A stretch of 39,045 nucleotides of DNA, taken from positions 1 through 39,045 of IMG/VR virus record IMGVR_UViG_3300027842_000001; one strand, written 5' to 3'. Source of the stretch: a virus. Every line of letters begins with the position of its first letter. Position 1 is the first letter of the stretch. A program made the translations under genes and the position numbers. Below are positions 9,965-10,759 of this stretch, one piece after another. The notes under the pieces were generated by a model. The model made no database searches. It saw only the letters and a list, made by a program, of their open reading frames with translations, and had not been told where the DNA came from.

Positions 9965-10759
9965 TCAGTGCACCACCAGCTCGCCGCGGAGGATCGCTTG
10001 TTGTTGCTCGCGCATCGCCGCCAGCACGCCGTCGTACTTGTCGCTGTCGGGCACCGACATGGTGAGGCGTCCGGCACGTCCGGACGTCCGGACGGTGGCA
10101 GTCACGGGCGCCGCCTCCGCCGCGGGCGACGGAAACTGGCGAGTTAGGAACTTGACGACGGCGCCGAGATTCGACGTCGCACCCTCGCCGGTGACACTGG
10201 CCATAAGCGCCCGCATCGGCCCGGGCAAGAGATTTTTCGCGGTGAGCAACTCGCGCACCGCGGGCTCCGTCCACGGATCGACACATCGGGCGGTCGCTGC
10301 TGCTGCTGCTGCTGCTGCTGCTGCTGCTGCGCCGCCTCGCGCGTGAGTCGCTCCAGCAACAGCAGCAAGAGACACCCCCTGGTAGTTCTCGTCGTACTCC
10401 GGGGGGGGACCGGACTGCACGTCGCGCGCGAGGGGGGGGGTGCCGGTCGCGGCCGGTCGGCGTCCGGTCGCGTCCGGTCGCAGCGACCGGTCGCGCCGCC
10501 GCTCGCGATTCCGACGCGACCGCTCAATGTCTTGCTGGCGATACCGTCGCAACTCGACGAGCTCGGCCTCGAGCTCGCTTTGAATCGCTATTAGCTCCGC
10601 GACACGCGCCCGCAGCGCCTCGAGCTCGCGGGTGTCCGGCACAGGTGTCCGGGTGTCCGGCGCCGGACTGCCGGACACTTGCCGGACGCGCCGAGTGGTC
10701 CATTCCCGCGGGTTGCGCTGGCGCCAGCGCGCCCGTCGGTCGAGCTGCTCGTCGGTCAT
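9965..10759 (-). CDS. Hypothetical protein; candidate replication initiator by position, with low-complexity centre
   Basis: Track ORF immediately upstream of the loader. Its middle third is encoded by DNA repeats (poly-Ala, PPP, PDTRTPVPDTR). Confidence 0.65.
   Translation of the reverse strand: MTDEQLDRRARWRQRNPREWTTRRVRQVSGSPAPDTRTPVPDTRELEALRARVAELIAIQSELEAELVELRRYRQQDIERSRRNRERRRDRSLRPDATGRRPAATGTPPLARDVQSGPPPEYDENYQGVSLAAVAGATHARGGAAAAAAAAAAAATARCVDPWTEPAVRELLTAKNLLPGPMRALMASVTGEGATSNLGAVVKFLTRQFPSPAAEAAPVTATVRTSGRAGRLTMSVPDSDKYDGVLAAMREQQQAILRGELVVH
10296..10330. repeat. Perfect trinucleotide microsatellite (GCT)11, read as poly-Ala on the minus strand
   Basis: Read directly from the sequence. 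Confidence 0.95.
10579..10595 (+). repeat. AT-rich 17-mer TTTGAATCGCTATTAGC
   Basis: Read directly; inside a minus-strand gene. Confidence 0.85.

Follow-up and report, generated by a model that had tools for sequence, protein, structure and literature searches.

A candidate replication origin embedded in the gene of a putative initiator in a GC-rich virus genome

Introduction

Given the crowding of short repeats within a single open reading frame (ORF) of the virus record IMGVR_UViG_3300027842_000001, we wondered whether this gene carries the replication origin of the virus inside its own coding sequence, or whether the repeats are operators, methylation targets, elements of the mRNA or simply by-products of slippage. 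The window analyzed here is the complete record of 39,045 bp, which has direct terminal repeats and a guanine-plus-cytosine (GC) content of ~70%. The gene in question, P0001 (we use the same name for its product), lies directly upstream of a gene for a DnaC/IstB-like helicase loader (coordinates in Table 1). To our knowledge, hardly any origins have been mapped in uncultured, high-GC, non-model phages. Here, we argue from comparative sequence analysis that the region is probably a phage theta-type replication origin, overprinted on its own initiator gene in the style of lambda and SPP1. To judge which features of the gene are shared, we retrieved DNA for nine distinct homologues of P0001, whose loci are denoted below by handles such as L004.

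Arrays of CCGG-centered words lie within the gene and recur in its relatives

The repeats of P0001 form three arrays, which we number against the direction of the record, so that array 1 lies nearest the start of the gene. The initial annotation of this stretch had described an iteron-like patch here, and each of the copies that it listed is present at the position it gave: CCGGTCG at 10443, 10453, 10464, 10474 and 10487 (array 2), GGTGTCCGG at 10631, 10644 and 10652, and the inverted CCGGAC at 10663, 10671 and 10682 (array 1). The three copies of CGTCCGG, which it had read at 10068-10091, fall within 10068-10094 (array 3). The low-complexity peptides RPDATGRRPAATG and PDTRTPVPDTR are likewise encoded as it had claimed. 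The central array has an extra minus-strand copy at 10484, its spacing is 13, 10, 11 and 10 bp, and two more CCGG sites follow 33 and 11 bp downstream with the helical phase kept. A similar arrangement is found in the homologous genes of L004 and L006, whose central arrays hold 5 to 7 copies at 10/11-bp spacing, so that in these three loci the CCGG centers are phased at 10 to 11 bp and multiples thereof (~10.5 bp) over ~90 to 110 bp. The tandem unit is 21 nt long, which we infer to be the shortest length that serves both the reading frame and two helical turns. Outside the central array, L004 and L006 carry counterparts of array 1 (GTCCGGC/GCCGGAC) at the equal position of the gene, and L006 has a C-terminal repeat cluster comparable to array 3.

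Genome-wide, the word CCGGTCG is ordinary in number (19 copies observed versus 21.6 expected); its clustering is not, for six of these copies are packed into 51 bp, for which a Poisson scan gives an estimate of ~1e-9. No 300-bp window of the 39-kb genome is richer in CCGG than 10401-10700, and clusters of GTCCGG and CGACCGG are confined to this gene, bar one cluster of three copies. This sole cluster outside the initiator gene, of the form GTCCGGC/GCCGGAC, lies at 11758-11795 inside the adjacent methyltransferase gene.

The initial annotation had also raised the prospect that relatives might keep the protein and lack the repeats. The opposite was found: all nine retrieved homologous genes carry arrays of 4 to 10 short CCGG-centered words, the density of CCGG is 14 to 32 per kb within the gene versus 3 to 8 per kb across the rest of the locus (a 3- to 6-fold difference), and the CCGG-richest window lies in or at the family gene in 10 of 10 loci. 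The repeated word itself differs by lineage, being CGACCGG, GTCCGGC(AG), ATCCGGC, GACCGGTC or ATCCGGA, and many of its copies are palindromic or present in both orientations. The same word is read in several codon phases within a gene (in the window, as R-P in one copy and as A-T-G in the next), and the linker peptides of distant family members are mutually unrelated.

A GC-rich core and a triplet-repeat hairpin adjoin the central array

Next to the central array lies a core of extreme conservation, comprising, along the coding strand, the last iterons, a C9 run, the palindrome TCGCGCGCGA (10422-10431), 13 nt with GTCCGGT, a C8 run and GGAG; on the plus strand, the two runs appear as G8 at 10401-10408 and G9 at 10432-10440. 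The core is a 64-nt exact match between the window and L004 over the 12 kb compared, where the next longest match is 39 nt and the initiator proteins are 44% identical. The longest matches of the window to L006 (31 nt) and L015 (43 nt) also fall within it. A codon alignment of four sequences shows that degenerate codons are identical at 12 of 12 positions in the core versus 19 of 54 elsewhere (Fisher p = 2.9e-5), and the three differences that L006 has in this stretch each change an amino acid. Since the synonymous sites are frozen and a single word falls into different codon phases, the aligned sequences indicate that the constraint acts on the DNA itself, and the supposition of the initial annotation that DNA constraint dominates this protein segment is thereby borne out. 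Three relatives whose sequences were assembled independently have runs of exactly these lengths, C9 and C8, and in L015 both runs are C8. Further afield, paired C runs persist in L007 and L008, and L011 has two G7 runs on the coding strand; in these three loci, a short AT-richer patch of 7 to 13 nt separates the runs. As a side observation, one extra C in the mRNA of L004, L006, L007 or L008 would leave only the N-terminal part of the protein.

Beyond the core, a potential hairpin or cruciform with triplet-repeat arms is found, whose loop contains CGCGCGAG, complementary to part of the core. Nine of the 10 loci have such a hairpin at the corresponding place, with differing arms, which are CTG/CAG in the window, L007 and L011, CCA/TGG in L004, L006 and L015, and TGG/CCA, in reversed order, in L008, L013 and L014. 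In eight of these loci, the hairpin stem is perfect over 9 bp or more, against a background of 0.56 hairpins with 9-bp stems per kb. That pairing persists despite the differences between the arms suggests that selection acts on the structure itself. Both strands fold about equally well, so that folding does not separate a DNA from an RNA structure; a search of Rfam returned no match, other than a sub-threshold chance match on the CTG repeat. The hairpin arm (GCT)11.7 with its partner CAGCAACAGCAGCA, the G8 and G9 runs and the palindrome TCGCGCGCGA had all been overlooked by the initial annotation.

The triplet repeat is also where assemblies of public sequencing runs break. The data for this phage in the public runs X1 (a 2017 soil metagenome) and X2 (a 2024 mine metagenome) consist of assembled Logan contigs, and in both runs the short-read assemblies break at 10287-10341, in the (GCT)n array; X2 breaks also near the iteron arrays.

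P0001 represents a previously unannotated protein family

The product of P0001, of 264 residues, found no match in Pfam, PHROGs, the PDB sequences, Foldseek or the ESM Atlas, and 11 family members searched against Pfam and PHROGs gave nothing at E <= 0.1 except scattered coiled-coil noise. The family is rare: protein databases yielded two matches in an index of 5.8 billion proteins and 13 when 1.84 billion representatives were searched exhaustively with a profile, and a further word-index search with the 11-sequence profile added only one member. All relatives are metagenomic. Scans of viral, metagenome and genome contigs with DNA and protein patterns revealed no more copies and no host, and BLAST against cultured phages gave no match for the region or for the P0001 protein.

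An AlphaFold2 model computed from the 11-sequence alignment (mean predicted local distance difference test [pLDDT] score 68, predicted template modeling [pTM] score 0.30) places helices at residues 3-27, 43-93, 143-208 and 240-257. The first forms a confident N-terminal basic helical hairpin. The second, a 50-residue helix with pLDDT above 92, is a long predicted coiled coil closed by ERSRRN, the best-conserved motif of the family. The C-terminal part is predicted to hold a small helical domain (166-208) and a tail helix (240-257). Between these parts lie three disordered or low-confidence segments, at 28-42, 94-142 and 209-239, and these are the segments encoded by array 1, by array 2 together with the core, and by array 3, respectively. 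The arrays and the core thus map onto disordered linkers, so that, if the model is right, the DNA signals occupy parts of the gene in which nearly any amino acid sequence would be tolerated. Palindromic, CCGG-centered sites would moreover be suited to a dimer that is held together by a coiled coil and carries basic helices. We regard P0001 as a putative initiator from a previously unannotated protein family.

The C-terminal tail of the family covaries with the downstream helicase loader or helicase

The loader gene starts at an ATG at 9963, one base past the TGA of P0001 (TGAcATG), and from this one-base gap we conclude that the two genes are tightly coupled. The start also agrees with protein length, the loader having 362 residues here and 341 to 349 in the relatives. 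Across the AAA+ domain, the loaders of the window and L004 are 41% identical, and BLAST against cultured phages finds only distant AAA+ matches, to annotated phage DnaC-like loaders. The gene order that the initial annotation had likened to that of lambda is general in the family: in all 10 loci with a readable downstream gene, an IstB/DnaC-type loader or a DnaB helicase follows directly after the family gene. The loader is found in the window, L004, L008, L009, L010, L011/12 and L015/16, and the helicase in L006, L013 and L014, where L013 is assigned from a 50-aa fragment that shares 62% identity with the beginning of the L014 DnaB.

The last ~25 residues of the family proteins (P0001 to P0014) are of two types, each of which tracks the downstream partner. 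The tail AY.HD.W..PPI is present in all three DnaB-linked proteins, and also in P0006, whose downstream gene is unreadable, and the tail L.W..AE.A..LLAAG in the IstB-linked proteins. Such covariation would be expected of a tail that makes contact with the protein encoded by the next gene, in the way that lambda O touches P through its C-terminal domain. Loader and helicase alternate likewise between the O-P pair of lambda and the 18-12 pair of P22. As a separate observation, P0003 joins a tail of the DnaB type to an N-terminal part and a core that are typical of the IstB-linked clade, and from its sequence looks like a recombinant that arose by a module swap.

An origin within the initiator gene and the alternatives to it

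Taken together, the locus comparison shows selection at the level of DNA on the repeats and the core, a conserved composite architecture of arrays, core and inverted repeat, and an invariant linkage with a loader or helicase gene, whose type covaries with the C-terminal tail of the P0001 family. An origin would probably account for all three and is the most economical explanation. We infer from this a mechanism in which P0001 binds the repeats, the duplex opens at the core or hairpin and the tail recruits the loader. In such a mechanism, the initiator would dimerize via its ~50-residue coiled coil, and its basic helices would bind the CCGG-centered, partly palindromic repeats of the three arrays, those of the central array on one helix face. 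The resulting nucleoprotein complex might then stress the adjoining C9-(CG)4-C8 core and the triplet-repeat inverted repeat, so that the duplex opens or turns non-B. Finally, the C-terminal tail would recruit the product of the next gene, which would be a DnaC/IstB-type loader that brings host DnaB or, in some relatives, the phage DnaB helicase itself. It is tempting to go further and to propose an origin that has no AT-rich melting site and opens through non-B DNA, namely the G/C runs flanking (CG)4 and a triplet-repeat cruciform, that is overprinted on disordered linkers, and that is served by a reversed-bZIP-like (basic leucine zipper) initiator family not described before, whose C-terminal tail is exchanged as a module to suit a DnaC-type loader or DnaB; in this full form, we consider the proposal doubtful.

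Several observations speak against an origin. An AT-rich unwinding element is absent, the core being 84% GC and the lowest-GC 30-mer in the gene still 50% GC. Profile, PDB and Foldseek searches detected no known initiator that P0001 resembles in sequence or fold. Only the clade of the window shows clear helical phasing, and the CCGG arrays could be operators or targets of the adjacent methyltransferase. Cumulative GC skew, by which the initial annotation had proposed to locate the origin, has its minimum at ~27-28 kb and its other extreme at 0-6 kb, not at 10.4 kb; because its amplitude of 299 lies within the range of shuffled sequences (mean 205, standard deviation 43, maximum 342), we treat the skew as uninformative and not as a refutation. 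The DnaA box TTATCCACA, allowing <=1 mismatch, matches twice genome-wide, which is the chance level, and 0 times within 9965-10759, so that the region lacks the cluster of DnaA boxes that marks a DnaA-dependent origin. In favor of an origin here, no other initiator, polymerase or rolling-circle Rep was recognizable among the ORFs scanned.

Could the arrays be a cis element of another kind, that is, operators by which P0001 or some other regulator controls the early operon, or clustered methyltransferase targets for timing expression or marking the genome? The tetramer CCGG, of the kind that methylases and restriction enzymes typically recognize, is common to all repeat words, the methylase gene itself holds the three-copy GTCCGGC cluster, and a methyltransferase gene adjoins the initiator gene in seven loci (window, L004, L006, L007, L008, L010 and L011), so that the enzyme is possibly linked to the CCGG sites. 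Yet L014 and L015/16 have no methylase gene beside the initiator gene although their arrays and their pairing of initiator with helicase or loader are present; the gene that accompanies the initiator gene throughout is that of the loader or helicase, not of the methylase. Operators, moreover, usually sit at promoters and are not distributed over three linkers of an ORF alongside a conserved core and hairpin. On balance, we regard a purely regulatory or methylation-related role as unlikely. Lambda O and many Rep proteins autoregulate, and because of this, such a role is not exclusive of an origin and could coexist with it.

Somewhat less probable still is an element of the mRNA, such as slippage on C9/C8, polyproline stalling, or an RNA hairpin that tunes translation of initiator and loader or yields a truncated N-terminal isoform. 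Homopolymer runs and a hairpin do lie within the transcribed strand, the -1 frame after the C runs stops within 1 to 24 codons in L004, L006, L007 and L008, which would give a truncated product, and the coding-strand stem has T opposite G in the window and L007. The -1 frame of the window, by contrast, is open to the end of the gene, leaving no conserved alternative product, and we rejected frameshifting or slippage as a candidate function because the alternative frames are not conserved. Nor does an RNA structure sit well with the about equal folding of both strands, the missing Rfam match, the coding-strand G7 runs of L011 or the reversed order of the arms in L008, L013 and L014, and repeats in both orientations together with palindromes are what would be expected of double-stranded DNA bound by a dimer. 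That the repeats have no cis function at all, being slippage by-products in a low-complexity linker (for example, TRPAATG) or a hypermutable contingency tract, might be suggested by the frame-preserving 21-nt or 45-nt tandem periods of the arrays and by the 12-unit trinucleotide repeat of the window, at which assemblers break. The constancy of the C9/C8 runs in independently assembled relatives, with C8/C8 in L015, argues the other way, as do the frozen synonymous sites of the core, the recurrence of the same CCGG word in different codon phases and in lineages with unrelated linker peptides, and a hairpin kept despite differing arm sequences; we therefore hold the absence of any function to be very improbable.

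Comparison with known origins

An origin inside an initiator gene upstream of a loader gene is a known arrangement; new here are the putative initiator family, the CCGG arrays and, where an AT-rich tract is usual, the GC-rich core and the triplet-repeat inverted repeat. The resemblance to lambda extends to detail, in that the repeats lie inside the initiator ORF, in the linker between the proposed N-terminal DNA-binding and C-terminal partner-binding parts, that several repeats have dyad character with an inverted repeat beyond them, and that the next gene encodes a helicase loader or, in relatives, a DnaB-type helicase, as in P22, where gene 12 follows gene 18. Compared with the wider class of origins located in initiator genes, the repeats inside the ORF and the loader or helicase gene directly downstream are both present, and the AT-rich element is missing. 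The differences from lambda are just as clear. P0001 has no sequence or fold similarity to O, so that homology does not place it in the O family, and the loader, whose AAA+ profile match assigns the 8875-9963 product to the DnaC/IstB class, is unrelated to lambda P. Where ori-lambda, inside gene O, consists of four 18-bp iterons and a 38-bp AT-rich tract (PMC3349717), the present region has CCGG words of ~7 to 10 bp at one-turn spacing in three arrays, and its 84% GC C9-(CG)4-C8 core stands in place of the AT-rich tract.

In SPP1, oriL, with direct repeats bound by the origin-binding protein, lies inside that protein's own gene 38, upstream of the loader gene 39 and the DnaB-type helicase gene 40, and an AT-rich unwinding element and a second origin, oriR, are present as well (PMC6316719). 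The shared traits are direct repeats within the gene of a candidate origin-binding protein and a loader or helicase gene next to it; the present genome differs in having no second array cluster elsewhere, and the proteins are unrelated. Iteron plasmids (RepA/pi/TrfA), whose iterons lie beside an AT-rich unwinding element (reviewed in PMC4980987), share with our region the phased short direct repeats, which in the plasmids are bound by their own initiator, recruiting DnaB through a loader. Plasmid iterons, however, are ~17 to 22 bp long, lie outside the rep ORF and are bound by a winged-helix Rep, whereas the structure predicted for P0001 has helices only, among them a coiled coil, joined by disordered linkers.

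If the region is indeed an origin, a function would be assigned to the hitherto unannotated P0001 family, and a compact replicon of ~2 kb, comprising initiator, origin and loader, would become available for high-GC soil bacteria. It would also exemplify dense dual coding in nature, with the DNA signals restricted to disordered linkers and with 21-nt repeat units that fit the reading frame and the helical repeat alike, and it would raise the question of how an 84% GC duplex opens at an origin.

Other features of the locus and genome

The features discussed above are collected in Table 1, together with the flanking genes and an AT-rich 17-mer.

Table 1. Features of the candidate origin region and its flanking genes (window coordinates)
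Feature	Coordinates	Strand	Basis or remark
DnaC/IstB-like AAA+ helicase loader	8875..9963	-	PF01695, E = 4.2e-11 (above curated cut-off); phrog_50 'DnaC-like helicase loader', E = 1e-37
Putative replication initiator gene P0001	9965..10759	-	ORF and translation; 264 aa
Array 3: CGTCCGG x3 with overlapping CGTCCGGACG palindromes	10068..10094		encodes linker residues 209-239
Hairpin/cruciform with triplet-repeat arms	10290..10375		(GCT)11.7 at 10296-10330 pairs with CAGCAACAGCAGCA at 10354-10367
Ultra-conserved 64-nt core, 84% GC	10397..10460		longest exact match between window and L004
Array 2, central iterons: CGACCGG (coding strand) x5 and perfect palindrome GCGACCGGTCGC	10443..10493		
AT-rich 17-mer copy	10580..10596	+	dispersed motif, phage-specific at this position
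Array 1: GGTGTCCGG x3 direct, then CCGGAC x3 inverted; six CCGG sites	10631..10687		encodes linker residues 28-42
N6/N4 DNA methyltransferase, directly upstream of P0001	10756..12189	-	PF01555, E = 3e-23

The 17-mer (consensus TTGAATNGCTATTAGCG) had been counted by the initial annotation as part of the origin patch. Its presence in the gene is confirmed, but its membership of the patch is not: we rejected it as a part of the origin because it is dispersed in the genome, with copies also at 11211-11227, 28788-28804 and 35327-35349 (starts 35327/35333), and is absent from the homologous gene of L004, in which locus one copy is conserved inside the methylase gene (927-942). Four to five copies in a genome of such GC content compare with zero expected by chance, and the copy in the initiator gene forces rare codons (CTA ATA ... 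ATT CAA) on it. The spacing of its hexamers is unlike that of a sigma-70 promoter, and between 9800 and 12400 neither a sigma-70-like promoter nor an intrinsic terminator was detected.

Beyond this locus, BLAST found no DNA-level likeness between the window and a collection of cultured phages. Searches of PHROGs with the ten large ORFs of the plus-strand arm (14404-35330) matched two families of unknown function only, and no terminase, portal or HK97-type capsid family. The absence of these tailed-phage families from the presumed virion arm would fit a non-tailed virus. The minus strand further encodes a small tyrosine recombinase of 220 aa (4850-5512), possibly for dimer resolution, and an NlpC/P60 peptidase (13184-13768). 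The recombinase is common to L004 and L011, the NlpC/P60 gene is found also in L011, and the order of the modules is the same; as far as gene content can tell, a small recombinase of this type fits a circular replicon. Finally, the public runs X1 and X2 contain an identical phage, with 0 base differences from the window outside the repeat tract (window positions 8000-13000).

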